A stretch of DNA of 64,000 nucleotides from Psilocybe cubensis. Its lineage: Eukaryota. Positions 40,533 through 64,000 of this stretch are shown piece by piece. The notes under the pieces were generated by a model. That model ran no database searches. It had not been told where the DNA came from and saw only the letters and a list, made by a program, of their open reading frames with translations. The stretch spans positions 1,364,001 through 1,428,000 of the forward strand of contig CM039010.1 in the NCBI GenBank assembly GCA_017499595.2, in the 5' to 3' direction. Within the stretch, counting starts at the first letter, position 1, and every line of letters starts with the position of its first letter. The translations under genes and the position numbers were made by a program.

Positions 40533-42269
40533 TTAGCCTCGCGAGCCAGGCCTTCTGTGAATCTCGTCTCTTTTCTGGATAAGGCAGGTACCGAGTGATA
40601 TGTTTGTACAAATGTTGTCTTTATTTATGTCGTCAAACATTGATCGGAGTGCGAAAAGAGAGAGATTCACAGAAGGCCTGGGACAAACGGTTCGGATTTG
40701 AGGGAATCCTCGTTTTGTGACTCGGACTTAGTGAAAAAAACGCGATTTGCCTCAACAACAACCTTCCACAACTTAAAAAAAAGTTGTCTACAGAATCATT
40801 TAGATAGGTTTCTTTTATAATAAAATTCATTTTTACAAGGTCACGAAAAAAATTTTTTTTGAGAAAAAAATGACTTGTAATTTGAGCCGAAAAATCATAT
40901 ATCATGGCGCAGGTGAACTGCTTCTAAGATTAGATGGCAGGTCCGGGCGGTTAATGAACCCAGTCTCTGCAGATGAAACAGACAATGAAAGAGACATACC
41001 TGCACATCCCACCTCCATCAAAAGTGAACCTCTGGATACCCAGATTGTCCCAAATGCAGTCTCTACATCCTCTGTAGATTCAAATCATGCTTCAGCTTCA
41101 GACAGTATGGGCGAGTCTAGCATGCAGGGTTTGACCTTGACATGGATCTTGAGGAAATAGAGGAGGAGTACGATGTTATTGAGGATTCAGAGGATTCAGA
41201 ATTCGAGGGGGAGGCGGACGGGTAGTGGTCGCAATCGACGTAGTTGTTCGAATTTCACTCAAGTCCGACGTGACAAAGCGTGACTCTGCCAAAACCGAAC
41301 CGTTTGGCCCAGCCGTTTCTGACGAAACCGAGCGGAGCTCGAAATATGCTGAGTCAGAAACGACTGGTGTACGAGCCTAATCAAGGCTACGACTTTCCGT
41401 GCAAAGCACGGCTACACTTAGTCTCGTTCCCATCCGTTATAGGGCACGATCTCCACTCCTGCGAGAGACCCGGGACTAATAAGCGGAGATCAAAGTCGGA
41501 GTCAAAAATTCTGCAAAATTTGATCGTAGAGATGTGCCCTATAACGTCTGGTGCAATTGCATCAGTAAAGATGCGGACATGTCACGCGGTGCTCACACAT
41601 CGACTCGACGCCATCTAAGTCAAGTTTTATGGTCAAAAGACAACAGGTCTCTTCGTTTAAAGATTTCATTTTACCATGTTTATAATCTCAAGTATGTAAA
41701 AGTGCCCTGTTGCCGGCAAAAATGTCAGAAAATTCCCGCTGGAAGACTTTGATGGCTCTAGCCCGTGTACAGGCAACTTGAAGTGTTAAGTGTGAAGATC
41801 TAACATACTTAGGCAGAATGGGACAGTAGCATTGAGACAGAAAGCAAAGGTATGCACATATAGTAACTTACATGTTCAATATACAATGAGCGCCAAGAGT
41901 GTGATTTAGCGGCGTAGCATATGAGCCCAGCTGAGTGAGCCCAGCCCAAATACAAATACCTAAACTATTGATTCAGCTGATTTGCTCGAAAATCACACAT
42001 ACGATATGGTTCAGCTGACTGCATAAGGTACCATTGTAATACCTTCATAATGAAGGAATTGTGTACTGAAGGGATAGCAAATACAGGGACAACGAGAATA
42101 GGAAGGTTGACGACAGGAACAGAAATGGGAAGGGGAATGAGGATAGCGGGAAGGACAATGAAGAAATATCTAATAGAACGTTGACAAAGCGTTAGGGAAT
42201 AAGTAAAGTAGATGCGTACAAGGAATATATCTCACCACCATTCAGCATGGATTTCACGTCAAAAAATAC

Positions 42270-42674
42270 CTAGTCCTCACAATCAGCATCGTATCCATCA
42301 TCACTGATATTAAGTCCACCCTCAACACCATCGTGTGCGACATCGGAAATACCGTACGAATGCTGACCCGAGTTGTCATCTTGATATTCGAAGTGCACCA
42401 CGACATTGGGGACCGGTTCTCGTTGGTCAACCACTGAGGAATTACCACTGCCCCACCCGGATTGATCCCCGTCCCCAGCATGCCCCTCATATCCGGAATC
42501 GTCAGACGTCAGATCGAAGGCTTGATCACCCCAGGTATCCGGAATAGCTGCAGGTGGGGTATTGGGTATATCGATGGTGCGTCCGCCTGTAACGAGTTCA
42601 TCAGAGATAAGTAAAATGTTTACAATCGACTCACGGAGAAAAGCCAGGATGGCTGCTATTGCACGGGCGAACAT
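42270..42674 (-). CDS. Hypothetical acidic protein with hydrophobic N-terminus (element cargo)
   Basis: 134-aa ORF MFARAIAAILAFLRESIVNILL...; upstream gtgagt..cag suggests a 5'UTR intron. Confidence 0.4.
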   Translation of the reverse strand: MFARAIAAILAFLRESIVNILLISDELVTGGRTIDIPNTPPAAIPDTWGDQAFDLTSDDSGYEGHAGDGDQSGWGSGNSSVVDQREPVPNVVVHFEYQDDNSGQHSYGISDVAHDGVEGGLNISDDGYDADCED

Positions 42675-43910
42675 TTTGGAAATGTACTCTGTGCGAGCGG
42701 TGAGTGCTATCCATCGACATTTAACTAGTACTCACCTTCAATTGGGGGCGGGCGTTTTGAAAATACACTGAGTCGTTGGGAGGGGGGAAGGAAGAACGGA
42801 GTTGGGGGTTGAATAATAAGGGAGAATTTAAGAAGCACCCTTTAAGCTTTCGGGACTGTTGCGCGGCGTATGGTCATCGATGGCGGCTTCGTTGCAGTGT
42901 ATTAAAATAGAATACAAATATTCGGGCCAGGGAAGTGTTCCCCATCTCATTGAATCAAGAATCCGATGACCGGCTTGGGACTCGGAATCATGGTATAGAA
43001 GATGCCAATTATTTCAGGATGTATATAAGGGACAAAATACATGTTCGTATATAATCTGAATATTATTCCGCCACCTATATTGAGTCCAGATAGGTCAGGG
43101 AATTCGTTACTCGAGATATTGCTCAGAGACACACTACCTGAGTATTGCAGACACATAACATGTATTGTGGGTATAAGGTGTGAATTCATGATATTGGAAA
43201 TATACAAAAAGTCTATCTCACCATCATTATACCCAAAACTACTAATGTCATCACCTCTGATACTTGTGGGTCCAATACCCCAATCTGAATATACACAAGG
43301 AAATTTGGAAAAGATGTGTGAAGTTGAATTCCTTCCTGATTGAGTAATTTTGGACCTGATCCGTTTAATTACCGGAAAGGTTGTAAATTTTAGCCTTGAG
43401 GTAAAAATAAGATAGCAAATTGTGCCATTTCAAAAATTAGGACTCTGAAAGCACTACATCACTTCCTTTGGGATAGGTTCTATAAGGCATTTGAAAGTTG
43501 TGTTTTACTGTTTCTTCCCCTGCATGCTCCTGTGATTCGTCTTCTGTGATGTCAGTTGGATTTGATCCGTAAAGTCGGAGATCCTATAACCTTTCAAGGT
43601 TTGTGATAAAATTATACCAAAAACTATGACTTCAAGAATAGGACCCTAAAAGCACCACATCCGATAAATAATGAAGGAGTCCATTTCCTCCAAGAAGTCC
43701 ATTCCTCCGTGCTAGCCTGGGAGTACGAATCCCAGAGCACGAATCCCAGAGCACGTGAGTGTGAGAGAATCCAATCAGTATGGGCAAAAAAGTCGCTCAA
43801 GAAGTTTCCACCATCCACAAGAAGACTTGTAGCACCTCCGAAAAGCAAGGTATGTGGATATCAAAATTTTGTATATACATTCCTGATAACTGATGCTTAT
43901 TACCAGAAGT

Positions 43911-44252
43911 ATGTCTGTGTCACCAACCCAAGTCTACGACTACGACTCCGAAACCGACATGAGGTTAGCCAATCATCCAACCCACAACACAGGCATTCCG
44001 TATTCGATTGCACAATACCAATGCGCCAACTGTTTCAGATGCCGATGTCGCTGCTACTGGGCTGACCGCGCTCATCATCGCCCCTGTAGAAGATGTCGCC
44101 GCCTACGCATTAAATGTTCACCTCAACAAGGAAACACTAGCCGCAATCACAACAGGCTACTGGACACTAGCAGAAGCCGCGGTAATGTAGATATGGGTGC
44201 CCTGGCTGCAAGGATACGTGATTTGGTTGGCAGTAGAGTACTAGAGGATTAG
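43911..44252 (+). CDS. Small Zn(II)2Cys6-motif protein
   Basis: C-AN-C-FRCRCR-C-YWADRAHHRP-C-RR-C-RRLRIK-C = CX2CX6CX10CX2CX6C. Confidence 0.55.
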   Translation: MSVSPTQVYDYDSETDMRLANHPTHNTGIPYSIAQYQCANCFRCRCRCYWADRAHHRPCRRCRRLRIKCSPQQGNTSRNHNRLLDTSRSRGNVDMGALAARIRDLVGSRVLED

Positions 44253-44538
44253 AAAATATTTACGGGGTCTCCTGTGCATGTATCCGAAATCAAATTCCGG
44301 GTCACAAAGTCTCCTATCTATGCTTTGTAAGAAATTCAAGGTCAGGGAACCTATGACAGTAGCAACACCTTTCTGTAAACAGGTTATCAGAATATAAATA
44401 TGGTCCACCTTTATTCAAAATTCCTTATAGGAGCAATTTTCCTATATGGTATGTTTTGAACAGACCCATCTGTGCAAACAAATGACAATAGCCTCGATTT
44501 ACAGTTAAATTTAGCATCATTGCCAATAAATCAAATTA

Positions 44539-45868
44539 ATGACACCCTCTTCTCGTTCAACACTAGCTATGCCACCAACCTACGGTCCTTTCAGTCGTAG
44601 CCCGGCAATGATCAAAACAATGCAAATCGCCCATTACCTCTGTGTCCGATTTGCTAGAGGAATAGGCAATTCCACTCAGGTTGACTCTGATGATTGGACT
44701 CTCACCGAGACCCAAGAATTCAATCAGTTAGCAGATGTGCTTGCTCGGGCGTTCAAGAATAAAAGTAAGTAGCACAATTTTATAGATATGGGATAATGCT
44801 TATCCTTTAAATATCATCCCAGAAATGCTGTCATGGAAGGCCGATGATTACAAGGACTGGTTGGAAGTGAACGGAAAAGGCGCCAGAGGGACTAATGCTG
44901 AATTTGAGCGCCGAGTTGCAGAGGAATTTCCTCCGCTGGTTCCAGGGGTCATTGTGTTTGAGACCGAGCCATTTATCCTCTGCGACATCAAAGGAAATAT
45001 TCTGATGTGGTATCTTCCCGGAGCTTTGAAAAATCGGCGTCAGGTGAGAAATTCCATCTCAATATGCCCACCCACAAGTCTGATTAATTTGTGCCAAGCT
45101 AAAAATGTGGAAAGAGCTGAAAATTCTTCAAGGATCCTTTTCCATCGACGAGTATTCCTCTAGCTGGAGGAAAAACACCAGCAACTATATGAAGCGAGAA
45201 GACTGCAAGACCTTAGCTCCTGGGACTGTTAGTATGGCACCAGCATGGTTTCAGCAAGGACACGCGGTGCGTCACCTTTAGATAATTACTTTCAGTACAT
45301 TGATGAATTATTTTAGAAAAGTAATCCATTGGAAGTCTCGGCCGAGCTTCGTAAAGCTCGAGGACTTCGTTGGATTGAAAACTTCTCAGATAGCGCTGCC
45401 CTTATTGGAGCTGCGCTTTCAATTATGCATACCTGGCAGTGGCAACTCGCAATCCAGGCCATGGATAATTTGTATCGAGATCCCGACCTAGTCGCCAAAA
45501 ACGAAACTCTTCCCCGTGTCCTCAATGCTTGGACTTCACCTCTCACTGGTATTTCTGTGATAAATAACCGCCTCGAGACTCCAACCCATCGAGACCGTGG
45601 AAGTGCATACGAGTGGTTCGACATCTTGTCCTCGATAGGAAAGTATCAAAACGGATACATGAGATTGCCAGGAGCTGGGGTGGAGGTTGCTTACGGTCCG
45701 GGAACTTTGGTGGGTATAGCCGGGAAGATATTAACTCATAATGCTTCGTCTGTTGGTGAACGAGCATGCATTGCACAGTACATGAAAGATAACGTAGTCA
45801 CAGCTCTTGTAACTTCCAATCACCGTCGCTGGGCTAATGCATCTTACATAGGGCGTATGGAGATGTAG
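44539..45868 (+). CDS. TET/JBP-family 2OG-Fe(II) dioxygenase (4 exons), apparently intact
   Basis: Spliced ORF has EPFILCDIKGNILMWYLPGAL, SWR, PGTVSMAPAWFQQGH, NRLETPTHRD (HxD), GPGTLVGIAGKILTH (distal His) and GERACIAQYMKDNV (2OG-binding Arg). No stops seen. Confidence 0.9.
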
Positions 45869-46355
45869 ACTAGTACTTTCCACACTTTGTTGGTCAATAG
45901 ATCTTAATTCCGAGTCATATTCAGCTCTCCGTATATTGATTAGAAACTGCCTAATAAGGACATTCATCAAGACTACCCGATATTGGGAAATGATGACAAT
46001 ATATGGTTAACCCAACAGGAAACCAGTGCTTCGCTATCTATGGAAAACATTTATGAATGGAAGGTGGAAAACTTCCTTATCCAGTAACCAATGAACATGT
46101 CCCCCTTGATACATGATATGTGATTCCTTATCCTGGCCCCGGCTCCCAGTCAGCCAGTTCCGCATTCCTACTAATCCGGCTCTTCAGTGACAGATCCGCA
46201 ATGTGACACGATCACCTGATCAATTTGTCACTAATTTTGTACTGTACGCGCTTGTCGAGGCTTGCTATATATCCATTATTACTTCCCTTTAATTCTATTC
46301 TACTATTCCTCATAAATACAGTACAGCACTTTGAATATTTCAGACACAAACAGGG

Positions 46356-49300
46356 ATGGCTACGCTGGTCACGACCCCATCCTTGCAGAGGCTCCTTTCC
46401 CTATTACTCGCTTTCGAGAAGTCAATCTTGTCGGCAACTACAGATACGCCAGCAAATTTCATTGAGAAAATAGACTCTATTACGGCTAAATATGTGCGTT
46501 TCTACTTATATCAAATGATAGTCCATCTAATAAAGTTTTAGCATGAAACCATGGCCGCGTTGGAAGCTGATACTGACGACATTATGAACAAATACCCTGA
46601 TTCCTGCGACTTTTCTATTGCGATGGCAGACCTCTTCATCAATGCGGACGACGAGAATCGTATGCCGACTCAAGAGGAAGTTGTACTCGCTGTTCAGGCC
46701 TACAAATCCTCGGTTGGAGAGGAATTCACTCATCCCCTTCTCAATGACCCTGCTAGACCCCTGAGGAAGAGGAAAGCACCTACACAGTATAGCGATGATG
46801 AAGACGGGTTCGGAGAGGAAGACCGTCAGGATTTTCAGGAAACCGGAAAAGTGGGTCGCCAAAAAACATTCTGAGACTATGATGAGCTCACGCAGAGGAC
46901 TCAGATGGGTGGCGGTATCAATGACGATGAGGACAGTGACTACGAGCCAACACAGAGGACGCGGATGAGTGAGAGAAGCAATGAGGATGGGGACAGTGAT
47001 TTAGAGCCGACTCAGATGACTCAGATGAGCCACCACAGCGAGGACCTCAATGTCCAAGATAATGAAGACCTCAACGAACTAGAGCCGAAGCCCAAAGCTC
47101 AGAAATTCGAGTACGATTCAGACAACATAGATATCTACCAAGATCACATCTCCCACATCGACCCAGTGTTTCCATCTGAAGACCAGTGCGCGAAATGCCT
47201 CAAATCCGGTTTTCGATGTTACGAATATGCACAACCTACAACAAAGCGCGCTTGCCGGCGATGTGTACGTTTGAGGGTCGGTTGTTCCACGTCCTGGAGG
47301 AGGACAAAAGGTCGACGATTCAAAAAAGCCAGAGTTGTATCTTTGTCCAAGGTTCAAGTCACTTCCAGGAAGCCCCGAAATGCCGCAAAGAAGAAAAGGT
47401 CCTCGGGTAACAGCACCGCAGGGAAGACTGCATCTCGAGGTAAGTGCCGAACTCACTTGCTTAACCATTGTATTCAAGTGTCATTCAGCCAACCTTCCAT
47501 CAAACATCCCTCAGATGGACAACCTTTGTGCCCGTCTCATCGCTGTGGAAAACTCTCAGAAGACCTTCAAATCACAAATTTCAACCCTGCAGTCGTCTAT
47601 CAAGGGCTTTGAAGTCGACCTTGAAACATCCAATGCATACATTGAGACGAACATCAGCTCTATGCACACCGAGATCAAGGAACAACTTGGGACCATACAC
47701 AACATCGAGTATAGGATTGACAAAAGGCTCGACAGTCACCACGAGCAACTGGCTGCCGTTCGGGACCAGCTGGATGTTCACGAGGCTAGGATAGAGAACC
47801 ACTCCCAGCAGCTTGTTGGAGTTCGTGAGGAGCTTAGAGTCATGGCAGCAGCAACATCCGATATGGCGAGGAGCACCCGTGACGTCATGGCTAATCTGGA
47901 GAAAACGATGACTACGACATTCAAAGAGGTATTTACGAACACCTTTGGCAACAACACATTGGAATCCAGAGTTCGACGTGTTATACACGACATTGCTTCA
48001 ACATCCCCTCTAACCACCAGCAGTAACAATACTGGTTCCTCCGCTGCCACTTCCATCGCACCAGCATCGCTCATTCTCAGTTCTTCCCCAATAGCCCCAC
48101 AAGATGTCCAAACGGCGCAGGTAATCTGGTCGGTAATCAAAGAACGTAACGATTTCTTCGAGGAGGTAATTGACGTCGAACAATTAGAGGATCAAGACGT
48201 CACTCCAGGTGTAGATGGCAGAGGGAAAGTAGGGGTTGAAAAGGAGAAGGATCAGGAAGCAGTGCGAGCGAATACCAACAAGAAGCAGGACGAGGTCACC
48301 CCATATACCCAGGATGGAGCGGACGCTTCCACACATACCCAGGAGTCAGCGGACGCTTCCACACATACCCAGGAGTCAGCGGACGCTTCCACACATACCC
48401 AAGAGTCAGCAGACGCATCCACACATACCCAGGACGCAGTGGACCATACTAGCACGGAGGTGAAGAATACAGAGAATCGCACTGATGTGGAGCTAGGGCC
48501 TGTCAAAGGTTTCACAGATATGGCGTCCGATGTAACTGCAATCAAGGCCGCTGGTGGACATGAAGATCAGTTCATGCTGAAAGAGCCGTCAGGGGACGCA
48601 GTGAAGGTTACAGAGCATCGCCTGGTTGCTGGGGTGGTTGCCGCGGTTGAGGGTAACGTTACAGATACAGCACTTGATAAGGATTTTGGGGCCGATGGAG
48701 ATAATGACACAGTTGTCAATGGAGGCACAGCACCTGATAAGGAGCGTCAAGAAGTTGGGACAGAGCAGGGAACAGGTTCGGAGATGGTTGGGGGTACAAC
48801 TCACGATGCGGAGCGTCAAGACGTTGAGCCGGAGAGAGGAACAGGTTCGGATAAGGTTGGGGGTACAGGAAATGATCAGGAGCATCAAGACATTGACACA
48901 GAGCGGGGAATGGGGTCGTTAGACATTGGGACGGAGCGGGGAACGTGTCCGGAGGTGGTTTTGGATAACACCAACAAGGTCGAGGGTGGGGTAAAGGGAT
49001 TACCAACGGGCTCGGAGACGGTTGCGGACGAGGCCAGCAATCTTCAGGGTGGGGTAAATCACTTAGACCCGGTTGTGGAAGAAGATGAGGATGAAGAGGA
49101 TGGGGACCATGATTCGACAGCCCACCCTTCAAGGGAACAGACCCCAGTGTCGAACCTAACTTCCTTGAAGCACACAAACCTGCTGCCCGAATATATGGAT
49201 ATATGGAGCCCTGGAGCCTCCACTCAGATGGACAGTCCAAGGTCTCCTGCTGTTCCCAGCCCCACTCCCACCCAACTTGACCACACTGAAACTCTCGAGC

Positions 49301-49398
49301 CCGACAAACCGAAGAGGTCAAGATCCAGAGCACGAAGCACAGGCCCAACCCGTCAAATGCCGATTCGGGCTGGCAGGGGTGCAGGAAAACTAATGTAA
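46356..49398 (+). CDS. Zn(II)2Cys6-motif + coiled-coil + acidic low-complexity protein (4 exons)
   Basis: CAKCLKSGFRCYEYAQPTTKRACRRCVRLRVGC = CX2CX6CX11CX2CX6C. Heptad region LIAVENSQKTFKSQISTLQSSIKGFEVDLE... Introns gtgcgt..tag, gtgggt..cag, gtaagt..cag. Confidence 0.7.
48302..48436 (+). repeat. Coding 30-bp tandem repeat (ADASTHTQES), ~4.5 copies
   Basis: acacatacccaggagtcagcggacgcttcc repeated. Confidence 0.9.
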
Positions 49399-49459
49399 AG
49401 GATTTCAATGTTTAGATATGAATCTACTTTGAATAAATCTACATCAACTATCTGACTAC

Positions 49460-52403
49460 TTATTTATGTTCTTTCGGTGTTTCAGTGTTTCCGCTGCTTC
49501 TAAGGGTTCTGCTAGATTTGACAACATCATTTTTTTTGCGACGTCTCCTCCCACTGTTAACAGAACCGGACTCTGATCCCGGTCCTGATTCTGACACCGG
49601 AGTCTCGGTATCACCAACAGTAACATTTTCAGCTTGAAATGTTTCGCCACCCCGCTGACTAGTCATGTCACCACCAGACAATGTACCGCCTTCCAACTGG
49701 TTACTGTCATCACCCCGACTTGGCTGGCCAGCTGCTATATCTGTCCCCTGACGGGATACCGGGATTCCATAATGACTGTTTGGAAGCCATCCATAGGCTG
49801 GATGTTGATATGTGTGGGGAACATAATACCGAGGTGCAGGTGGATAATATCCGGGATATCCCATAGCAGGAGGATACCCAATATGATAGGAAGTTGGATG
49901 GGGAAAGTATTGCTGATGTCCAGTGGGGTGTCCAATAGGTATGTTTGATGTCTGCCTGCCCATTGCATCGTCCCTCATAGAAATACCGGCGACTGGGGGT
50001 AGGGTATTACTATGTGTGTTTCCTAAAAGTGGTGACGACGCCGACAAGATATCCATAGACTGTGAGTCCTGTAACAAACGGTGTGATGATAGGTTTGGAG
50101 CCTGATCGTCCACAGATGGTGTCGGGGTAATGAAGTCATCCACAGGAACAAAATTTTGCAATGGGACTTCGTTATGGTAGGTGGAGTCAAGTCCTCTATT
50201 AACAATACCTTGGTCATAGGATTGTGTGTCCAAGTTGGAATGAGGACCAGAAAGCGGATTCCCAACGGGTCGGGTGTTTCCTTCCACCGCGGATGTGTTT
50301 CCACCGACGGGAGGTGTGTTTCCACCCACTATAGATGTGTTTCCGCCAACAGGAGGTGTGTTTCCTCTGACAGGATGCGTGTTTCCTCCAACCGCAGGGT
50401 TTCCTCCAACCTCAGATGCGTTTCCTTCCATCGCGGATGTGTTTCCACCGACGGGAGGTGTGTTTCCACCCACTATAGATGTGTTTCCGCCAACAGGAGG
50501 TGTGTTTCCTCTGACAGGATGCGTGTTTCCTCCAACCGCAGGGTTTCCTCCAACCTCAGATGCGTTTCCTTCCATCGCGGATGTGTTTCCACCGACGGGA
50601 GGTGTGTTTCCACCCACTATAGATGTGTTTCCGCCAACAGGAGGTGTGTTTCCTCTGACAGGATGCGTGTTTCCTCCAACCGCAGGGTTTCCTCCAACCT
50701 CAGATGCGTTTCCTTCCATCGTGAATGTGTTTCCACCAACGGGAGGTGTGTTTCCACCCACCACAGATGTGTTTCCGCCAACGGGAGGTGTGTTTCCTCC
50801 GACAGGATGTGTGTTTCCTCCAAGACGCGCATCCTGTTGCAAAGTTAGTGTGGGATTACTGGGACTGAGCTCCTCAGCCTCGTCCATATCTGACTCTGAT
50901 TCACCACTGTGAGAGAGACTCGGAGGGGCCACCGTTGTTCTTAAAAGTGCTGCTTCCAAAGGATATTTTGCCTTTATAAATCTTCCATCCTTTCCATCTT
51001 GCAAAACTTGACGGAATGAGAAGGATGTCACCGTTTCGTTTTCCTGACGATTTCGAAGATATGCCAACAGCGACTGGACCTCCTTGCCACTCATTCTTGT
51101 TGGATCCCGAAAAACAAAACTCTCAGGAATATCTTCTGGCCAAAAGAATTTTTCAGGGTTTTTACCCATTGCTTCCCAGGGTGGTGCTGCCCTCTCATTG
51201 TTACATGCAACACCTGTCAACAGACAATGTCAAGGATAAAGTCGATGTCAAACTGTAGGACTCAGAGACCTACGATAATGGATCCTAAAAAATTCTCTGA
51301 TAATTTCTCGTTGTGTCTTTAGATGCTCGCTACGACCATGGCTTATGATTGGAGGAGGGAGAATGGGTATGCCACCAGGCCCTTTCGTTAAAGCAATGAC
51401 CGGTTTTCCATCGTCCATAGAAGGTGAATTGCCTTCAGTGACCTCCAGGACCTTCATGATCCATTCACCAAAAGCTTTACTGAATGTTGCACAGGCCTTT
51501 CTGTTAAATTCTAAAAAAGACTGAAAATGTACACCAGGTCCAGCCAAATCCCGGCTGTAGTCATGGCTAGAGGAACAGGTGAGACTAGTTCCAAAACATA
51601 AAATAAAATTGGTTACAATGTTAAGCCTAGTGCACCGTCTTCATTTCTATGAGCCTCAATAGTGACTGCGTGCATGCCCATTTGTTTTAAAGCGACCTCA
51701 TGCATGTTTAATATTATACGCTTGCCGTACTTCTTTGCTGCTCTGTTCAATCTATCATTTAATATCCACATGAGACGTTAGAAAATATTTGAATTTGACC
51801 TCTGTTGGACTGCTTCGGGGGGGGATTTGGCTTGCCATTCCTTCTGTTTTTCCAAATAGAAATTTATCTCCTGTTTGCCTAGTGAGTCCTTGATGTGGGC
51901 CAAAGCCTTTTGATAATATCTAAAGTAAACTCGGGATCCCGGCTTTTCTCCGGGACAAAGCCTCAAAACCTCTTCTTCTATTTCGTCGTGCTTGAAATGG
52001 GCAATCACATTCCTTAATTGTATCTTCCTCTCAAATTTAAAAACACGGCGATTCTTTGTGAGTCCACGATGATTGTTAAACCAAGTTTTAATACCCTAGA
52101 AATCCCAAACAACCTCAGTTTACGACGTGTCTATCAAGAGCAAAAAGTAAGTTATACCTTGAAACGTCTCTCCCATTCCTCTTTGAGGTCCTTATTTCTT
52201 TCAATAACCAATAGCCCATATCTCTCAGGGCAAAGATCTCTAATTTTCTCGCCAACACGTACGCAGAACTCTGTGCGGTCGTCTTTATTATTCTGCTCGA
52301 GCCACTCTTCGCGGTGTCATCTGAGAATCTCTTCTTCGTCTTTACTCCAAACAATTTTTTCGAATCCTTTCTTGTGAGTCCGCTGTCGTTTAGATTTAGC
52401 CAT
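49460..52403 (-). pseudogene. KDZ-associated divergent HMG-like protein gene with a premature TGA in exon 1
   Basis: Spliced: MAKSKRQRTHKKGFEKIVWSKDEEEILR*HREEW.../GIKTWFNNH...YQKALAHIKDSLGKQEINFYLEKQKEWQAKSPPEAVQQR/AAKKYG..KQMGM../HDY..PILP..QREIIREFFRIHY/..PPWEAMGKNPEKFF..IPESFVFRDPTRM. Stop at 52317-52319. Confidence 0.65.
50270..50820 (-). repeat. Coding 144-bp (48-aa) higher-order repeat built of VGGNTxx heptads, ~3.8 copies
   Basis: cttcca anchors at 50281, 50425, 50569 and 50713. Unit MEGNASEVGGNPAVGGNTHPVRGNTPPVGGNTSIVGGNTPPVGGNTSA. Confidence 0.95.
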
Positions 52404-52607
52404 GATTGTTTAGGGGTAGAAGATGGGTGAGGCTTCAGTCTGTTGCTTACGCTTAAATTGATCATGATCTAACGTGACCGAAATATTCTAATTTTAGACT
52501 CACAGTGATCGAGGATCTTTAATTTATCAGGAATGACGGAAACCGGGTCAAGGAAATCGACAATACGTCATGGGAATTCGGAACCCACAATTAACTAATG
52601 GAGGCAA

Positions 52608-53476: not shown

Positions 53477-53561
53477 CTAAACAATGAGAAGAAGGGTCAA
53501 ATCAAAATCAAAAGTTATGAACACCAGTATGCTCGTGTTTGTTGTTTGGTCACTATCAAAA

Positions 53562-53644
53562 TATTCGCGAAAGTGGGTTCGCAATCACACATGATTGTTC
53601 GCGATCACACATGATGTTCGCGATCACATAGGTTGTTCACAATT
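53562..53644 (-). promoter_or_regulatory. Array of TGTTCGCGATC motifs (19-20-bp period) upstream of the 53476 gene
   Basis: Exact copies at 53596 and 53615; degenerate copies at 53576 and 53634. The regulatory role is inferred. Confidence 0.55.
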
Positions 53645-54820
53645 CAAAATCAAGAATAGTGGCCTTGAAAACACAGTAAGGCTCACGAACATGTTAGACA
53701 ACACAAAATTGTGTTCTTGAATGACTTGAATGAATTAACTAGCCGTGATGACTAGTAAGTAGAAGCGGCATACCATAAATTTTATATATCTTGCAGTGTC
53801 CTAAATGACAGCTGTGGTCTGTGTATGACCAGTCCCACTCTAGTCTCAAATCAACGCCTGTGCACGAAGCCGCGTAATGGTACCCACTATCACACTCGAC
53901 GAGGTTCTCAATGAGGTTTATTTAACTTGTGGATTAACCCAATGTAATTATTGAGATAGGGTGTCTTAGTCACCCATGTGGTCAATCTGACGGCTATGGT
54001 GCGTTGTCTATTCAGACCTTCAAGCAAGTGTCTTCAGTGTGACTCCTTTAACTCAAACTTTATGACAGTTCGGTGCGTCAGGTGCAAGGTTAAGCGCCCA
54101 AAGTACTGGCTATCACTGTGGGGATAAGGCGTCTAAGTCATCTATGGGATGAATCCGACTCGACAAAGGCTATGGTGCGTTGTTTATTCAAAGTGTTCAA
54201 ATATTTATTGTTGTACGAGTCTGTCAAGAGTAGTGTAAGCATTAGTTTGGACAAAACCTTGACTTTCAAATTAAAACGGGTTACTTCTTTAACTGACATT
54301 CGATGATGGCTCGCTGCTCCAGGTTATGACAAGGTTAAGCGCCCGAGATATTAGGACCACAGTCAACTATGTCCAAAACAATTTTAAGGTAGTATGAATC
54401 TAGTTTCTAGTTCTAACAAGAGCCACGTTTTGACCCTCAAGCGGCTGATATGATTTGTTTGTTCAATATGTGCCTAATTTTAAAGACCCTTACAGGTGTT
54501 CTGCACAGTCAACTAACTCAATCTAATTGCTTTCAAGCACGTTACTTGAACTATGGTGGATTTAAAAACAAGGTATTTGATGAGCAAGAAGGCAAAATAA
54601 TGCAAGGTATGTGCGTGGTTGTGGGGCTGTAAACACTTGCAAGGTAGGTGTGTGGTTGTGGGATGGGCAGAGGTTTGTGCTCATTGCAAACACTGTAAAG
54701 ACAGTTAACTTGAAATTTAAACCTAGGGTGGGAACAGTAAGCACAGTGTTTGGTCTGACCAGTCCGTCAAAGAAGTATCTACCAATGTTTGCTAGTCAAA
54801 TAAACGTTGTATGCTCCCTT

Positions 54821-55154
54821 AGGTGTGTGTAATTTACCTGCGTAAGGCGGACAGGCATAGCCGCTTTCACTCAAATGGACGTTCTGCTACGCTCCCAGAA
54901 TTATAGCGCTATAGGGTGTGCCCACCATTGACATATCAAAGGTGTAGAACATCGTTAAGTAGGTGCGTGGTTGTGGGGTGGGCAGAGGTGTGTGTAATTT
55001 ACCTGCGTAAGGCGGACAGGCATGGCCGCTTTCACTCAAATGGACGTTCTGCTACGCTCCCAGAATTATAGCGCTATAGGGTGTGCCCACCATTGACATA
55101 TCAAAGGTGTAGAACATCGTTAAGTAGGTGCGTGGTTGTGGGGCGGGCAGAGGT
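54821..55154. repeat. Near-perfect 165-bp tandem duplication
   Basis: aggtgtgtgtaatttacctgcgtaaggcggacaggcat... starts at 54821 and again at 54986. Confidence 0.95.
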
Positions 55155-55203
55155 TTACGTTGTTTGTGAATACTGTGTAAAGAGAGTCAACTTGACGGGC
55201 CTC

Positions 55204-55800
55204 GAGATCGCAAACATACCATGTTTGTGCCAAAACGCGAACATGTCATCTTGACAAGTGCTGGATCGCAAACAAGATACTGGACTGTGAACCAGTCAGC
55301 TTGCCTAGCTTCAAAATGGCAAATGCCGCATGGTACCTTAGTGGAAAACAAATTGAGTCACCTGGAATGGTCTTGAGATCGAGAACATACCAAATTGATA
55401 GTGTGCTGGATCGCGAACATGTCATCTTGACGAGTGCTGGATCGCGAACAAGATACTGGACTGTGAACCAGTCAGCTCGTCTAGCCTCAAAGGCATATGT
55501 CATTTTAGTGGGAAACAAATTGAGTGCTCTAGGCTAGTAATGAGATCGCGAACATACCAATTTAAGGGTGCGCTGGATCGCGAACATGTCATATAGACAC
55601 ATGCTGGATCGTGAACACAGTGTTGGATTGTGAACCAGTCAACTCGTCTAGTTCAAAGGCATGTTTCATTTTAGTGGGAAACGAATTGAGCTGCCCTAGG
55701 CTGGTCTTGAAATCGCGAACATACCAATTTAAGGGTGTGTTAGATTGCAAACATGTCTTATTGACAAGTGCTGGAGAACAACGTTTTGGATCGCAAAGTG
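55204..55800 (+). repeat. ~167-171-bp tandem repeat (~3.5 copies), each with three GATCGCGAACA-type motifs
   Basis: Units start at 55204, 55375, 55542 and 55709. Exact motif at 55409, 55440, 55544 and 55576. Confidence 0.9.
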
Positions 55801-56228
55801 TGCAGCACTGCATGTTCGAGTACCTGGCATTAGGAACATTTGTTAGTCTGTCTTTTCTGGGTAGCAACAAGTTGTATATTGGTAACTGTTTTCAATTCTG
55901 ACGTCTTAACTTCTCGAAAGCTTGGAGTTTGTACATTCAGGGCTCCTAGGCGTTTGTTTTGTACAACTATGCATAGTCTTTGGTGTACCTGTTGATTCTG
56001 ATGTAATGTTTCTTTGTTGGGGGTCTAGAGAGTCCGGTTCGAGTCCCCATGTGTGTAAATTTTTTGGGTCCTTTATAATAACTGATATATTTGGAAGTCA
56101 TGCTGTTATTCTAAAAATAGGTCCAGCCAGCGTACATCTCTTCAGTCTTTCTACCTATCTTCTGTCTCTGTCTCTCTTATCACACCGCACAACCTTTACA
56201 TTCTCATTCATTTTTTATTTCTGCTTAA

Positions 56229-59200
56229 ATGTCTCGAAGATTCAAGGTCTTGGAAAAGCCAGGGTTAGATCTATTCACAATTGAAACTCGACAAACTGAG
56301 AGGGGCTCTCGAGATGTATCTGTCAAAATTTCAGACTTGATTTCTCGAAAGTCGAGGTCTTTATCACCATCAAGAAGGGTCAGAATAGTGAAGCATCCAG
56401 TGATTTTACCTCCTACCAACATCAGCGACTTGAAAGGCTCGTTTCATGTATTGATTCAAAGTGATGGCGAGGTCAATTTCAAGGCATTGGACGATCAGTT
56501 CGACCACCCAGCTAGCAAGGTTGGTAATATCACTTATGAACAAAACATTCTCAGAATCTAAAACTTGATATATTTAGTCTCAAAACGATTATCTGAGGGT
56601 CTGGGAGAATGAAAAGAGAATACCCTACCTGAAACGTCTGTTGTCACAGAAGGCTGGTCCAGCTATCAACGCGAAGTGCTCGCACTGTGGTATTGGGAAA
56701 GCTATCTGGCGGTGCCGCGATTGTCTGGGATCCGATCTTTCATGTGTACTATGCTTCCGGAATCAACACAATAGACTCCCCTTCCATCGCGTTGAAAGGT
56801 GGAATGGGAGGTTTTTTGCTACCGGTGGTCTTTGGCAAGTGGGTCTAAAGTTATATACCGGTCATATGGGAAAGCCTTGCCCTCGAATCACCAATCCTAC
56901 CAATTCAACATCCACCGGACTTCCATTTCTGGTGGAACAATGCAGGCACATCCTGAACGAAGTTTCTCCTCACATAGGTATTGCAGCAGAACATATTCTT
57001 CAACTTCTTACTTCTGCGTTAAATTCGCCTGAACATGGCGGACCACCAACCGAAATGTTGTATAGGGTGTCCTGCTTGTTACCCCCCTTCCAGATGAAGG
57101 TATTGAAGGATCTGATATTATTGGTCAGACATGCCGAAATTGAGGCAGAAAAGGAATCCGCAACCACAAATCAAGTCCTGGCCCAAGACGAAAGCGTATT
57201 CCCACAGAAGGAGGAACCTGTTCACATTACATCTGATACTCCTCTCGTTGACGATCTGCAGGAAGGAATATGGGAAAATGAAGATTCGTCTGAAACAAAG
57301 GGACCAGTTCCCCGTCTTCTTCCCAGACATCCTAAATATGATTCGGCTGGTAACAAATTTTTAACAGTAGTTGACGTTTCAGGTTTTCATCATATCCCAG
57401 TTGTCTGGTGTTCTTGTGAGGAGAGACCCCACTCCGAAACACATGAAATGCAGCTTCTGGATCTGAAGCTATATCCAGCCTCCTATACCGACATCAACAC
57501 AGTTTTTACTTTTGAAGTACTCAACGACCACCGACTTGACAACCTGGAGTGCAAATCCTCGTCCTATCAATATCATCAAAAGCTTAGAAGAAAGACATCA
57601 TTTGCATTTACAGATTATGTCCCTAACCGTTATGCGGAGTTGTGTAGAGTCTCAAGACAATGGAGGAATATCAAGACTAGGAAGTGGTTTGGACACATCG
57701 ATGACAGTAAACCTGAACGCGGATCCTTGGCTTTATTCTGCCCAACTTGTCCTCAACCAGGTATAAACCTACCCGAAAATTGGAGAGAAGAGGCAACCAA
57801 AAATCCGTAAGTCCATCACTGACTGATTTCAATTGTGTAACAGTAATTGAATTACCCCCATAGATATTTATTCACCCGGAGTGTTACAGCGGATGGAAAT
57901 TTCAAAGCAGACCATCTTCAACAAAGGAATAGCGCAGACGATGTGTGGCTTACCGATGGAGAGTCGTTCATGACCAATAACCAAAGATATAAAAGACATC
58001 TGGACACCGCGATTGAAATTAAGGAGGTAAGTTTGCGCTCACGTGTCTGATAACACAACTCCTGGCGCGTTCTCCGATCCAATGATGTGGAACTCCATTT
58101 TCCTGGAGCGTTTTCCTGTTCACGTGTTTGATAACACGACTCCTGGCGCGTTCTCCTGATCACTGACTGGGAATCAGGTGTATTTGCGCTCACGTGTCTG
58201 ATAACACAACTCCTGGCGCGTTCTCCTGATTCCTGACAGGAAACCTCCTTTGCTGGAGTGTTTTCCTGATCACGTGTCTGCTAACACGACTCCTGGCGCG
58301 TCCTTCCTGATCCCGGTGACAGGGAAACCAGGTCAATTCCTGTCGCATTCTCTTGAAATGATAATTATCTTGAGATGCTAATTTTTACCCCTTCACAGCC
58401 ACCAACCTGCAACAAGTTCCGTGCTGAAAATAATGCTGAAAGAGCTCACAATGGATGTGACGTTACAGGGGTTGGAGGCCATGCCTGTGCTAGGCATGGA
58501 TGCTTCGCACCCGGAAGTATGGTGGACTTTCAGAAAGGGGAGCGCCAAATGAATATCGATTGGTCACTGTGCGAAATGTTACAGACTACAAACATTGACG
58601 AGACCCAGAAACTCCTCCATATCTACGACCTGGGTTGCACTTATCTCCAGAATCTGGAGAAAAGAATTGCAGCCAATCCCTTTCTGACCAAGCCAGATAA
58701 GTTGGAAATCATTAGAGCCATAGGCTTATTTCACGTACACGGCCACCAGGACCAATGCCTCTACCGATATGCCACTAACTATGTACCCGGTAGTGGTGTA
58801 GTTGACGGTGAAATTTTAGAGACTTTGTGGGCAGTTCTAAACTTGGTTTCCAGAAGTACAAGAACCGCCTCTCTTGCTCATAGGACGGAAGTGCTCAACG
58901 ACCACATGGGTGACTCTAATTTCAAAAAGATGGTCAACATTGGTGAGCGGGAATGACATCCGTGCAGAATTAAGCTGACCCAGAGCATTCCTAGTTTCAA
59001 GTATCGTATCTAAATATCGTCGGGCGGTCAAATATGCTGCTGAAAGCTCCAAGTACTTCTCTGAAATTACAAAAATCACACCAGTAGACGCCCGAGAAGA
59101 GTGGTTGCACACTATTACTGCCTGTGAAGAAAGAAGACAGCAAAACATAGCCGAAATGGATTATATGCGGTCAACGGTTCAAACAGGAGCAACACTTCAG

Positions 59201-60412
59201 GAAATAGAAACAAAGCTGATCAAGGAAGACATAGAAACACTCACTCCAGGAGCTGATGGAACAACAGCCTGGCTAGTGTCTGGACTCAAAATAGAGGAAG
59301 CCCAGTACGCCTTCAAAAAGTCATTTTTTAATTAGCCTTCTTATCATCTTGCTAGAATTGATCTTCAGCAACATGTCAGACGTCTGGGAAAATCTCCAAC
59401 TTCCGCACAAGAGTTGGACCTTGCAAAGAAAAGACAGCGCCTGGCCTCCCGGATCAGAGCGTTCCATAATCTATCCGGAAGATATCTTGGAGAAGCTACA
59501 GTGTTGCAGCACAGTCAGAAAAGTGACATTATCATATTTCCAGACGGAAATATCAGTGATTCTGATTTTCCGGATGCTCCACCTCCTCGCTCTGTCGACA
59601 TTGAAAACAACAAGCTTGTTTTCCCCTCGGTGGTGGAATCCTCCGATTCAGTGGTCCTTTCTAATCTAAAATCCCGTGAATTTGAACTTCGACAAGGACA
59701 GGCAAATGATTCACTTCAAAAAGTCAGGGAGACTCTGGGATACCTCTCTTTTCAGTTTATTGATAAGGTCAGGACGGCGACAACATCATCTCAGCACTTA
59801 AAGTCTTGGGATGGGGTTCGCTTGCTTAATCGAACCCTAAGTCTCCACCGGCGGGTCTACAATCGCTGCCAAAGAGCTATGGTGAAAATCAAACCGGAAT
59901 CCAAAGATAGATACCCAATCTTGTTGGTTTCGGAGTGCCAGGTAAGCACTGCAATATCCGACATGAACACGCCCGGACAAAGCCAGGCAACACTGTCTTG
60001 GATTTGGGGAGCCCTGGATGGATATTCGGGAGAGAATGCAGAGATTTGTGCCAGGGACCCTAACCGAATGTTGGAATGTGAGTGTGCTATTTTACAGCCA
60101 GACTATAGTCCTTGTCCTCACCTACCTGTATAAGTTCTTCGTATCCACTGGCTTCGTGCCCGAGCCCAAAACAACAGGTGGAAGGAAGAACTTGCTTTGA
60201 CAAAAGCAGAGATGGGGTGGACTACAAGATTTTTTATGTTCAAGGCAGCAGAGTGGGAGGGAAAGAGACACCGGGCTACAGAGTGTGGTGATTCAGGTAT
60301 GACAGCGTTTTCCGAGCAACAAATCAACATGTGGAATGAGTTTGGACGAGTTGCTGAGGCTCAATTTTTGGCGGTCAATAAGGACTACGTAGGGATTTGG
60401 ACACCGAAATGA
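56229..60412 (+). CDS. Kyakuja-Dileera-Zisupton (KDZ) transposase with CxC2 domain (7 exons), apparently intact
   Basis: CSHC..CRDC..CVLCFRNQH..LPFHRVERWNG and CxC2 (LTVVDVSGFH..WCSC..QLL..LYPAS..TVFTF); LALFCPTCPQPGINLP, DGNFKADH, CARHGCF..VDFQKGERQMNID, YDLGC, FHVHGH..C, DGEILETLW..LN, HR.EVLNDHMGDSNFKK, ELRQGQANDSL, WLRARA..RWKEE. Confidence 0.95.
58039..58305. repeat. Minisatellite inside transposase intron 3: four ~37-bp cores in a ~151-bp dimeric unit
   Basis: tcacgtgtctgataacacaactcctggcgcgttctcc at ~58039, 58120, 58190 and 58270, within intron 58027-58398. Confidence 0.9.
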
Positions 60413-60486
60413 GTCTATTATTTTGGAGGAGAGAATGGTATCGTATTTTCATTATTGTATATAAGGACAAGGAGGAGATGAAGGAT

Positions 60487-62187
60487 TTATAAACGTCTTG
60501 TTCCACGCAATGTGCTAGATAATTGGTGAGAAATGGAACAAAATGATGTGCCTTCACACACCTATAATGCATAGAAAATGGTAAACCGAGATCTTCCTCC
60601 ATTGGTGGCTCATAATCTCCCGTCATCTCCATTTCCTGTGACGAAGGAGAAGCAGAGTGGTCAGAAGACCACTGACTTCCTGCACTGTCAGACTGAGTCA
60701 AATCAGACTCACTTTGAGATGACTCTGCAGTATCTTCAATTTCGGAATCAGAATCCGAGCTTTGACCAGTGATGATTCTCCCAATTCCGTCGTCAATATC
60801 CGAAGAAGCCTCCTCATTGTCCTTTCCCTCCGGTTCTATTTGGGTATCGAATGGGTTGCTGTTATTCATCGCCTTGAAGTAAGGTGACTTCCCGGAAACG
60901 ACGGCATGCTGATTCAAACGCTTGTAAGCGCCTAAATACCAAATGGAACGTCTCAGAGCCTCCAGTTTCCTGGACATTGCAGCTTCAGTAAGACTTTCAA
61001 CCCTTGTGATGTCTGCTAGTAGTTGAAACAACATTGTCTTGGAAATTTGACAGGTTCCTTCTTGAGCGGGGACAGATGTTTTCGAAGTTTGTTTGTCATT
61101 GTCGGTACTGTTTTGTCCGAGGTTGCCTATGATGATGATTTTAGTACAGTAACCAATTTAAGGCAAAGAAAACACACCAGGTGCAGACCCTGCAGGATAG
61201 GTAGCAGACATTTCCGGACTTCGTTCAGCAACAGATAAATCGCCCATATCTATGTCGGTGTCTCCAATGCCAGGTTCTATAGCACCCGGGGTACAATCGG
61301 CACTATCTGCTATGGCACCTAGCACAGGAGGTGACATTCACTGAAGAGAGAACATTTGGGATAGTGTCTAGGGACTCACTGTTCGAGGTAATATCCCGAC
61401 GATTTGCAAAGCAGGATTTTAAAATGGTTTTAGAAGCTACCCCCAAAATTTCACCACTTTTGGTGGGGGAAGAATTCGAATTCGCCACTTTTGCCTCTGC
61501 ATCGGCCGCATCGGAACCCGTGGTGCTCTCATTCGCTAACCCCTTTTCAAACAAAAATCGATGGATAGGGAGACCTGGCGGAAGATAGACTTTGGCATAT
61601 TTGGAATGACGAAAAGGCCCTTGATGTGGGAGGAGACCGGATTGAACAAGCTGGGCGAGTTGAAACTATCAGGATGGTATTATGTAGAAAAAGGTGTATA
61701 CTCACCTTGGTCATTGTACTGCTAATCAAACCGTCAAGGTCTGTGAAACTCGGGATCTGTCCACCTTCGGTCCACCAAGAAAAAATACCCTCTGGATCAA
61801 ACTGCTTGATCATGGTGCGAGATTCTTCTTCCGAGAAATCGTCGAAAAGACAATTTATTGCGTTTATTGCCAGACCATGAGTCCACAGGAGTTCCTGAAG
61901 GAAAAAGGGGGTTGGAACCGCTAAGCCGAGAATTGAGGCGATACCATGATTCATGGTTATGAATTCCTGAAAAATGTTGAAATATTTTTCATGATTCTGA
62001 GCGAATGAATAATACGTACCAATTCTCGTTGGATAGCATTCAGGGTGGATTCATCAGCCACTCCGGGGCCAGGCCTTGTAACTTCCAAAATACCAATGCG
62101 AATGCGGGCAAGCAGATAAGTCATCTTCATATGCATAAAATCTTCTTCACGCTTCCAGGATGTAGAAATGAGAGGGGAGAATATCAT
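60487..62187 (-). CDS. Hypothetical multi-exon protein convergent with the transposase (element cargo)
   Basis: ORFs 61957-62358, 61547-61954, 61303-61554 and 60375-61034 join through GT-AG introns into one frame (…NAIQREL/EFITMNHGIA…STMTK/LVQSGLLP…/…LLADITRVESL…). Confidence 0.55.
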
Positions 62188-62364
62188 GTTTGATGTCAAT
62201 GAGTGGAGCAGATAGACTGAGTGCGAGTTGGCACATAATCTTATCTTATGTGTCAGTGCGATTGCACGTGATGCCGGATCAATCACTGAGCAAAACACAA
62301 CGCCGAAATTAATTAAACCACTATCTTTAGTCTTCTCATCACAGTCCCCGGAGCGCAATTACTG

Positions 62365-63925
62365 ATGGCAAGTGAACACGGTAAACAGACCCCACAGAAA
62401 GTATGTGTAATATCTTGTAAATAATATATAATTGACTAATGTATTTGCAGAACGTTCAACCCAATCATGGTGCCCTTCAGTCACATCTCAAAAATGTGCC
62501 GTTTTGGAACATATACGACGTTGAGTCGCGTCACATTGTCAATCGAGTAGTTGGGACTGGACAGAATACTCGATCCGATGGAATGATCGGTCCACTTCCC
62601 CCTTCGAAGACAGGGCTTAAACGGAGTTTATCAGAAATCAGCGGTATCGAAGTAACCGGCACATCCTCAGGCGAGGTGAGTAAGCTTTTCTAAGTAGGTC
62701 ATTTCATCCGCTGAACCAGAAACCCCTATACCACAGGTGGAAGATATGGCAAAACAAGCTGCTGGAGGCTCCACTGCTCCTGCAGCTAAAAGGTCGCTCA
62801 GGGATATTAAGCAAGGATTATTGTTGAAAAGGGTTAAGGTCGAGCCACAAGACGTCAAGATCAAACTCGAGGCGATAGAGCCTTCCCCATCCCTTTCTAC
62901 CTCCATTTCAACATCTTCCACGGCTGCTGGACAAGGGGGAGTTTCCAAAGACAATGAACCCAGCATTCATCCAGATTCTGCAACTCCCGGCCCTGTTACT
63001 GCAAAAATGATGTCTTCGAGCAAGAAGGATCACCCCAGGGCTCCAAATGTCAAGGCCAAGAAGCCCACCCCCGTTTCTACCATCGAAGGTGCACCTGCCG
63101 CCTCCATCAAAGCCACACCCGCTGCCACAATCGAATCTGCACCCGCTTCTGCCATCAAACTTGCCCCCGCTTCCGCCATCGAAGCACCCACGCCCATCAC
63201 ATCAAGAGGCAGGAAACCTATTCCACCTTCCAGTACCAAACCCACCCCTCAACTCAACAACCCTACGCCCATTCCGCTTTCCAGGACTACTCCTAATGAT
63301 CCGGCTTCACTGACAAAACCGAGTACCGTCCCTGATGATCCTGCTCTGAGCAGCAGAGAAAAATCCGCCCCTGATGCTACTGCTCCGAACAGTGGAGAAA
63401 AATCAGGAAATGCCAGCGTTCTTGAACTTGCTGGGATACCTTGCCTTCCGCTTACAGGCAGTATGCTAGTCATTCCCCGATGCCCTCGCAGGAGCTTCAT
63501 ATCCTACGATCTTCAGTGGCCTCAGAACAGGGAAGACTGGTTACACGAAGTAAGGGGTGAGAATATGTCTGAATTACATGTAGATTGGGAAATTAGCGAG
63601 GCGAAATTCAGCAAAATGTATCCAGACTTGGCGAAAATGGAATATGTACGTCCCTCCCACCATCTTTGGTTTCCCAGTGTCCTAACCCTTGTTACCCCAG
63701 AACTATGCTACCTCCGAACTCCAGGGCATAGAGGAAAACATGCTCAGGAGGTTTCACATTTCTGATCATTCGGATTATTGTGTTACTGTAGAGTCTCTGA
63801 GATCAGGAAGGTATGGACAACTTCTTCTTGAGGCGGATATGTATCAAGAATTGGCGAAGATCAAGAAGGGTTTGGGGTCTGCTAAGGAGCACATTAAGGA
63901 ACTTCTGGCTTCCGCTTCGGAATAA
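62365..63925 (+). CDS. Hypothetical Pro/Ser-rich protein with helical C-terminus (4 exons; element cargo)
   Basis: MASEHGKQTPQK/NVQPNHG...SGE/VEDMAKQ...AKMEY/NYATSELQG...ASE* with gtatgt, gtgagt and gtacgt donors. Confidence 0.55.
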
Positions 63926-64000
63926 ACAGCTCAAATACTTTACCTCCAATGATATTTCTTTTTTCTCTGCTCCAAGTCTGTGATCTACATCAACTCCAAG

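Follow-up and report, generated by a model that had tools for sequence, protein, structure and literature searches.

A stretch of 64,000 nucleotides (nt) from Psilocybe cubensis (assembly GCA_017499595.2, contig CM039010.1, positions 1,364,001 to 1,428,000), called the window below, carries a TET/JBP dioxygenase gene and a KDZ transposase gene on the same strand. We read the two as parts of one apparently autonomous, TET/JBP-carrying KDZ transposon that is segregating in the species and belongs most likely to the Kyakuja clade, and we put the probability of this reading at about 0.65. The securely linked core runs from the start of the TET gene (44569) to the stop codon of the transposase gene (60412), about 16 kb. 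The original prediction, made from the letters of the window, had gone further. It described a single transposon of more than 22 kb that started at 41220 and held about nine genes.

The transposase and TET/JBP genes

The KDZ transposase gene (56229..60412, plus strand) was modelled with seven exons, which were mapped by tblastn with homologous proteins. The predicted spliced frame encodes 1178 amino acids (aa) without an internal stop. All six introns have GT-AG borders (56520-56577, 57807-57863, 58027-58398, 58943-58994, 59305-59355 and 60078-60134; 58, 57, 372, 52, 51 and 57 nt long, respectively). The open reading frame (ORF) at 56578-57810 matched Pfam CxC2 (PF18803), an N-terminal Zn-chelating cluster, with an E value of 1.5e-22 (80.2 bits against a cutoff of 27). 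The ORF at 58357-58956 matched Pfam KDZ (PF18758) over profile positions 51-217 with an E value of 3e-40 (138.7 bits against a cutoff of 26.6), and profile positions 2-43 were found as a weak match in the preceding exon (E 0.045).

With the CxC2 ORF as query, 75 agaricomycete proteins were obtained at E<=0.001 (2664 candidates, 719-2050 aa), and the KDZ protein is collinear with these homologues. The best of them came from Flammula alnicola, with 43% identity at 100% coverage. Residues 346-1171 of the spliced frame aligned with another P. cubensis protein, P0002, at 40% identity, and the catalytic motifs DGNF, YD and DGE were kept in the alignments to P0002 and P0003. With an open frame and these motifs, the predicted transposase looks intact.

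P0002 (JR316_0009328, 1691 aa, 42% identical) is itself a KDZ protein and represents a cluster of 39 sequences. Other KDZ families of P. cubensis may therefore be multi-copy, in contrast to the single-copy family described here. The 372-nt intron of the transposase gene was unusually long compared with the 51-58 nt of the other five. Most of it consists of a 151-nt tandem repeat (58032..58312, 1.9 copies) with CACGTG cores, possibly a small sequence inserted into the gene.

The TET/JBP dioxygenase gene (44569..45868, plus strand) was modelled with four exons and 378 aa, starting at the ATG at 44569. Removal of the putative introns at 44765-44822, 45044-45098 and 45267-45316 left an open spliced frame. 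The ORF at 45317-45868 matched Pfam Tet_JBP (E 2.1e-14), and the last exon matched the structure 7vpn of CcTet, the enzyme of Coprinopsis cinerea, over residues 249-399 (phmmer, E 4e-20). The HRD triplet (HxD), the distal His and the Arg that binds 2-oxoglutarate (2OG) all aligned with those of CcTet. Gly331 and Asp337 are highlighted for the C. cinerea enzyme in the accessible text of PMC11040006. The position of Asp337 is also Asp in the predicted protein; that of Gly331 is Ser, with a Gly one residue earlier. For the N-terminal exons, no match was obtained in the PDB (0 for exon 2). Judged by its sequence, the TET gene looks intact.

Tet_JBP, CxC2 and KDZ were the Pfam families that passed their cutoffs in the region flagged by the original prediction, all of them on the plus strand, and the remaining seven ORFs of that scan fell below every family cutoff. 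The linkage of two intact-looking genes, which the original prediction had claimed, was thus borne out by the Pfam domains, the DGNF/YD/DGE motifs, the aligned HRD..H..R residues and the open spliced frames.

Strain variation and the borders of the element

Public reads under the same species label were used for a comparison of strains, as contigs for runs X3 and X10 and as raw reads for X8 and X9. The region was single-copy in these read-sampled genomes and structurally polymorphic. In X8 and X9, the baseline depth was about 30 (30-32), both in a host gene bin and at 42336-44336. It fell to 0.55 (X8) and 0.49 (X9) of the baseline over 44337-57009 (19 bins of the block against 7 baseline bins), and regained the baseline from 57010. 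This half-depth block, placed at 44291..57133 (about 44.3-57.1 kb), covers the TET gene, three accessory genes (A, B2 and B1), a set of internal arrays and the 5' part of the KDZ gene. In our reading, a second allele or copy of X8 and X9 has lost about 12.8 kb internally.

In X3, possibly the source of the window itself, the depth was flat, and that of the block equalled that of the flank. In X10, positions 41825-59000 were essentially uncovered, and the host flank was about 99% identical. Short diverged pieces at 45004-45670, 47005-48338, 54733-54944 and 57677-58343 were the exceptions within the uncovered part. Three states therefore segregate in the species: full, internally deleted by about 12.8 kb, and absent. 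The original prediction had proposed a search for other copies with the same gene order. Because the region is single-copy by the reads, such copies cannot be found within the species.

Chance expectations for coding sequence were obtained by comparing the reading frames of 41850-64000 with those of 200 dinucleotide shuffles. Ten ORFs of at least 200 aa were found against 0.09 expected, and seven of at least 250 aa against 0.01 expected. The longest ORF of a shuffle averaged 164 aa, with a 95th percentile of 210 aa. No scanned ORF of the flagged region contained a housekeeping domain, and no fragment of a further transposase was found among the 99+ ORFs scanned. The prediction of further coding sequence free of housekeeping genes accordingly stood. 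The ratio of observed to expected CpG (CpG o/e) was 0.57-0.93 over 41850-64000, both flanks included, compared with 0.96 in the host part of the window. This depletion fits a methylated island derived from transposable elements.

The left strain-variable flank (41850..44356) was single-copy, at full depth in X8 and X9 and absent from X10, with a CpG o/e of 0.78. It belongs either to the element itself or to an older relative of it. The right flank (61133..64000, CpG o/e 0.68) runs off the window. It contains ORFs at 61550-62358 (minus strand) and 62698-63762 (plus strand, 355 aa), the latter beyond chance length, and neither of these right-flank ORFs had a Pfam match.

The candidate ends for the element were sought as 5'-CA..TG-3' termini flanked by a target-site duplication (TSD) of 7 bp. 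One pair places the left end at 44350..44358 (CCTATGA at 44350-44356, then CA) and the right end at 61124..61132 (TG, then CCTATGA at 61126-61132), both read on the plus strand. The interval 44357/61125 encloses everything from the TET gene to the last accessory ORF, gene C, in 16.8 kb. The left end fits the depth step near 44337; the right one lies beyond the read coverage. The chance expectation for such a pair was 0.2, which is close to chance, and the CA and TG were imposed by the design of the search.

A second pair (44291/57133, CCGAAAT) had a lower chance expectation, 0.044, and fitted both depth steps. It was rejected as an insertion junction because the KDZ coding sequence continues across 57133 and is collinear on both sides with the homologues of Flammula and Psilocybe. 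At most it marks microhomology at the deletion, and 11 seven-mer pairs occur there by chance. No terminal inverted repeats (TIRs) of at least 14 nt with up to two mismatches and a matching duplication were found, and a Zisupton-like search returned only chance-level matches. The left end of the element would fall within 41850-44357, and the right one past 60412. In the reads, the linked genes behaved as strain-variable DNA; the search for TSD and termini yielded only the near-chance pair at 44357/61125.

The start at 41220 given by the original prediction fell within a different repeat (40134-41849). Its depth in X8 and X9 was 16-19 times the single-copy depth, reaching 500-564 over 39668-41668. 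Joints of internal deletions in this repeat (40184>41392, 40581>41325, 40660>41319 and others) had both sides within it. Since the joints are confined to 40134-41849 and the depth is high, position 41220 lies inside an unrelated high-copy repeat, and the left 0.6 kb of the predicted transposon belongs to that repeat. The repeat contains a near-perfect hairpin with 162-nt arms (40178-40339 and 40380-40541, 92% complementary), and neither a TIR nor a coding domain was found in it. To its left, ordinary host genes extend to about 39.7 kb and include a DAO oxidoreductase, an SPB4-type DEAD helicase and a TB2/DP1/HVA22 protein. A direct repeat of 300 nt also lies in this host part, at 32018-32764, with two copies that are 92% identical and 447 nt apart.

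Accessory genes and internal arrays

Gene A (46551..49398, plus strand) corresponded to P. cubensis JR316_0013180 (P0078), a protein of 917 aa, with 98-100% identity. In this protein, an acidic N-terminus is followed by a Zn2Cys6-like cluster and a basic stretch, and a coiled coil precedes the acidic tandem repeats. The coiled-coil part matched only the protein itself among 1.84 billion representatives. The six Cys follow the spacing CX2CX6CX5-12CX2CX6-8C, with a loop of 11 residues (x11). The match to Pfam Zn_clus was below the cutoff (E 0.25, 11.9 bits against 21), and in the PDB the cluster found Gal4 and Pho7 at non-significant E values of 2.3-4.6. The AlphaFold2 (AF2) model of the cluster was too poor for use, at a predicted local distance difference test (pLDDT) score of 45.6. 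The UniRef twin of gene A carries the name Zn(2)-C6 fungal-type domain protein. Gene A is a species-restricted orphan with the layout of a Gal4-type activator.

A 120-aa ORF to the left of the TET gene, A-prime (43890..44249, plus strand), showed the related spacing C-x2-C-x6-C-x10-C-x2-C-x6-C. It is a diverged paralogue of the Zn-cluster region of gene A (BLASTP E 3e-11, 31% identity over 115 aa), in agreement with tblastx. A-prime had no match in Pfam, and was absent from the protein collection as an exact Met-to-stop ORF. Of the two Zn2Cys6 genes named by the original prediction, two paralogous Zn2Cys6-like ORFs therefore remain; the family assignment stayed below the Pfam cutoff. The separate basic-helix gene that it had listed turned out to be a part of gene A, and its acidic ORF probably is as well. 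An acidic ORF at 42273-42731 (153 aa) is within chance length, as are the ORFs of about 150-167 aa in general.

Gene B2 (49460..51705, minus strand; intron 51273-51214) encodes a repeat-rich orphan of 700 aa that is 100% identical to JR316_0013181. Its repeats are of the GGNTPPV type, with a 144-nt unit in 3.8 copies, and its N-terminal part reached a best Atlas score of 0.80, an uninformative level. The coding repeats of both orphans were near-perfect in tandem: 50276-50823 in B2 (144 nt, 3.8 copies, 97%) and 48305-48434 in gene A (30 nt, 4.3 copies, 93%). This suggests a recent expansion in both genes.

Gene B1 (51778..52403, minus strand; 187 codons, intron 52157-52096) encodes a small basic protein of a small basidiomycete family. 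It matched a Flammula alnicola protein, also of 187 aa (P0076, KAF8965696.1), with an E value of 6e-11, and in tblastn both exons aligned at 41-43% identity, interrupted by an in-frame stop. The stop is at codon 29 (52317-52319, minus strand), where the Flammula homologue has Lys. By GenBank accession and locus tag, KAF8965696.1 comes directly after the KDZ homologue KAF8965695.1 on the same contig of 384,561 nt. This neighbourhood is the only cross-species support for the gene grouping. Two further, near-identical loci of the B1 homologue were present in the F. alnicola genome.

The B1 family fell near three Atlas clusters with scores of 0.94-0.95 and 51-95 members, all from Basidiomycota. 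Among metagenomes, 598 pattern matches gave 0 confirmed relatives of B1. A profile search of the PDB at E<=10 returned nothing relevant and no HMG protein, and the AF2 model of the B1 homologue (pLDDT 47.1) was too poor for a fold search. B1 is a conserved companion of this KDZ lineage, inactivated in this copy by the stop.

Gene C (60378..61034, minus strand) is convergent with the 3' end of the KDZ gene. It encodes 219 aa from the first Met, or 260 aa from stop to stop (60378-61157), and is beyond chance length by the shuffle 95th percentile of 210 aa. Gene C had neither a Pfam match nor an exact entry in the protein collection. In an exact look-up of gene C and the flank ORFs, 0 of 8 Met-to-stop ORFs were present in that collection.

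A divergent HMG-box protein is said to have been described by Iyer and colleagues in 2014 as an accessory of KDZ elements, and the original prediction had placed such a gene here. None of 99 ORFs of at least 55 aa showed an HMG box at E<=0.05, nor did the other Pfam scans, although a very divergent HMG could escape these searches. The predicted total of about nine genes likewise shrank. Support was obtained for the TET gene, the KDZ gene and gene A, and only five to seven ORFs had support of any kind.

The internal arrays (53576..55775) lie between the divergently oriented B1 and KDZ genes. The motif GATCGCGAACA, with a palindromic TCGCGA core, occurred in seven exact copies within 53596-55586, and in about 14 copies when up to two mismatches were allowed. 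Three cores on the minus strand (GATCGCGAAC) were found at 53576-53625, and about 11 on the plus strand in a 167-nt array of 3.2 copies at 55206-55753. A 165-nt repeat in two copies (54821-55150) sits between the minus- and plus-strand groups. The arrays foreseen by the original prediction are therefore real, with the seven exact copies and several tandem arrays. The motif was not found near 44357 or 61125, nor in the other promoters, and the arrays have no matching right-hand array. Subterminal transposase sites and a nested miniature inverted-repeat transposable element (MITE) were both considered for these arrays, and there were no copies at the candidate ends.

Alternative readings and known systems

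Several observations weigh against a single mobile unit. No end of the element is proven, neither the termini nor a TSD being established; the pair at 44357/61125 is close to chance, and the statistically better pair at 44291/57133 (0.044 against 0.2) cannot mark an insertion. The half-depth block is evidence of co-deletion and not of co-transposition, and the read-sampled genomes contain no second copy to show co-mobility. The TET gene lies 10.4 kb upstream of the transposase gene, on the same strand, with accessory genes between them, and B1 carries a premature stop. Among 40 of 420 differences, 8 of the 11 coding differences of X8/X9 were nonsynonymous, including 3 of 3 in the TET gene; this is weak evidence, and it gives no sign of purifying selection. 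For the putative Kyakuja assignment, an indirect hint is the CxC2 of the protein; in the accessible text of PMC11343200, Dileera is the clade with CxC1, and Zisupton the one with CxC4+SWIM.

Successive insertions, along with decay, could also have assembled the same genes in a strain-variable island, with A and B2 as young host genes or de novo genes. The lack of a proven TSD or termini, the abutting high-copy repeat, the orphan status of A and B2, the 10 kb between TET and KDZ, the CpG depletion into both flanks and a structural variant that cuts through the middle of the KDZ gene are all in line with such a history. On the other hand, the accessible part of PMC12730594 gives linkage of TET and KDZ within a single element as the rule for Agaricales. 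Both genes here look intact and share a strand, B1 and KDZ are neighbours in a second genus as well, and no other transposase fragment was found in the 99+ ORFs. We consider an accumulation of this kind unlikely. An immobile relic or a domesticated locus, in which the TET gene now serves the host, would agree with the single copy in every run, the nonsense mutation in B1 and the tolerated deletion allele. The open transposase frame and its catalytic motifs, intact over 1178 aa, argue against a relic. An essential role in the host is disfavoured by a conspecific isolate that lacks the locus, and a host function also by the listed differences in the TET gene, 3 of 3 of which are nonsynonymous. 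We hold this explanation to be quite improbable.

The larger unit of the original prediction, from about 41.2 kb to beyond 64 kb, with about nine functional genes and a self-contained epigenetic system with targeting factors, seems to us very unlikely. Some of the evidence does favour it. A Zn-cluster ORF paralogous to gene A lies to the left of the TET gene; the sequence at 42.3-44.3 kb and the 3' part of the KDZ gene have equal depth in X8 and X9, as would one unit with a deleted form; and X10 lacks everything at 41825-59000. The ORFs at 60378-61157 and 62698-63762 exceed chance length, and the CpG depletion reaches both flanks. Against this, position 41220 is in the separate repeat of 16-19x depth, whose short variants have both ends inside 40134-41849. 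Several of the listed genes are one gene (A), and ORFs of about 150-167 aa are within chance. None of the eight exact Met-to-stop ORFs was in the protein collection, B1 has a stop, A and B2 have no relatives, and no HMG box was found. Zn2Cys6 proteins usually bind CGG triplets; the array motif has none, and is not in other promoters. The idea of a single transposon longer than 22 kb and equipped with some nine working genes is not supported; A and B2 are species-restricted orphans, and B1 is nonsense-mutated. The segregating TET/JBP-carrying KDZ transposon with its core at 44569-60412 remains the preferred reading.

By analogy with its family, the DDE transposase of this transposon would move the element by cut and paste. 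The CcTet-like enzyme would oxidise 5-methylcytosine (5mC), and possibly N6-methyladenine (6mA), on which CcTet also acts, in and around the element. Such oxidation may counter methylation-based silencing of the element. A counter-silencing role of the element-borne TET has been proposed, without an experimental test, in the accessible text of PMC12730594. Gene A or B1 could bind the arrays, as putative DNA-binding proteins. A methylation-sensing switch might even be imagined, in which gene A, as a Gal4-like activator, or the B1 family protein binds the inverted arrays of the CpG-rich TCGCGA motif, upstream of the transposase gene, in a manner that depends on the state of 5mC and oxidised 5mC set by TET. 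We regard this as highly improbable. If true, transposition would be turned on and off by a self-contained epigenetic circuit made up of TET, a DNA-binding factor and the arrays.

TET-carrying KDZ elements were reportedly first noted by Iyer and colleagues in 2014, and we know of no other eukaryotic mobile elements with a 5mC oxidase of their own. For Agaricales, complete Kyakuja transposons that contain TET genes have been published (Kojima 2025, PMC12730594), and in the accessible part of that work the TET-carrying elements have 7-bp TSDs, 5'-CA..TG-3' ends and no TIRs. Like Kyakuja-1_LB, Kyakuja-2_LB and their relatives, the element described here combines a CxC-cluster KDZ transposase and a CcTet-like (AG-type) TET/JBP on one strand in an Agaricales genome. 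No TIRs were found in it, and a CA..TG pair flanked by a direct repeat of 7 bp offers candidate ends. It differs from them in that its ends are unproven and its TET gene is 10.4 kb from the transposase, with three genes and the motif arrays between. Psilocybe has 0 occurrences in the main text of PMC12730594; the supplementary family table may list this or a sister family. A literature search found no paper that joins Psilocybe with KDZ or Kyakuja with HMG, and nothing relevant on KDZ, HMG and TET JBP.

The Cryptococcus elements KDZ1, KDZ2, KDZ3 and KDZx1 are 6.4-10.9 kb long, encode a CxCn+KDZ transposase and extra ORFs without predicted domains, and have been shown to move (PMC11343200). The present element resembles them as a large element with a CxCn+KDZ transposase and domainless extra ORFs. 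As far as the accessible text of the same work goes, they belong to the Dileera and Zisupton clades, contain either CxC1 or CxC4+SWIM, show TIRs and TSDs in most cases, and are not reported to carry TET. With at least 16 kb, the element described here is larger, its transposase has CxC2, and it includes a TET gene.

The predicted TET protein shares with CcTet of Coprinopsis cinerea (PDB 7vpn, 7w5p and 8jkk; accessible text of PMC11040006) the HxD, His and Arg residues and the position of Asp337. It is unlike CcTet in the Ser at Gly331 and the Gly one residue earlier. In a gene model of Pleurotus pulmonarius (P0069, 1597 aa), Tet_JBP is fused to CxC2+KDZ, with the KDZ part at residues 700-1579. 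The TET part is directly upstream of KDZ on the same strand, which is the order found here without the 10-kb spacer.

The CACTA element En/Spm encodes, besides its transposase, TnpA, which binds repeated motifs. An accessory, putatively DNA-binding protein and arrays of short motifs in opposite orientations are found here as well. The two systems are unlike in that the arrays here are internal, between B1 and KDZ, and not subterminal, the family is different and the binding is putative.

The element is valuable as a specimen: it is single-copy, both of its key genes look intact, and three natural states occur within one cultivable species. The full, deleted and absent states offer a ready genetic contrast for the effect of an element-borne TET on local or genome-wide 5mC and oxidised 5mC. 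Compared with the systems above, it is a known kind of element and not a new system, distinct in its size (a core of at least 16 kb, against the 6.4-10.9 kb of the Cryptococcus elements), its set of accessory genes and its internal arrays.

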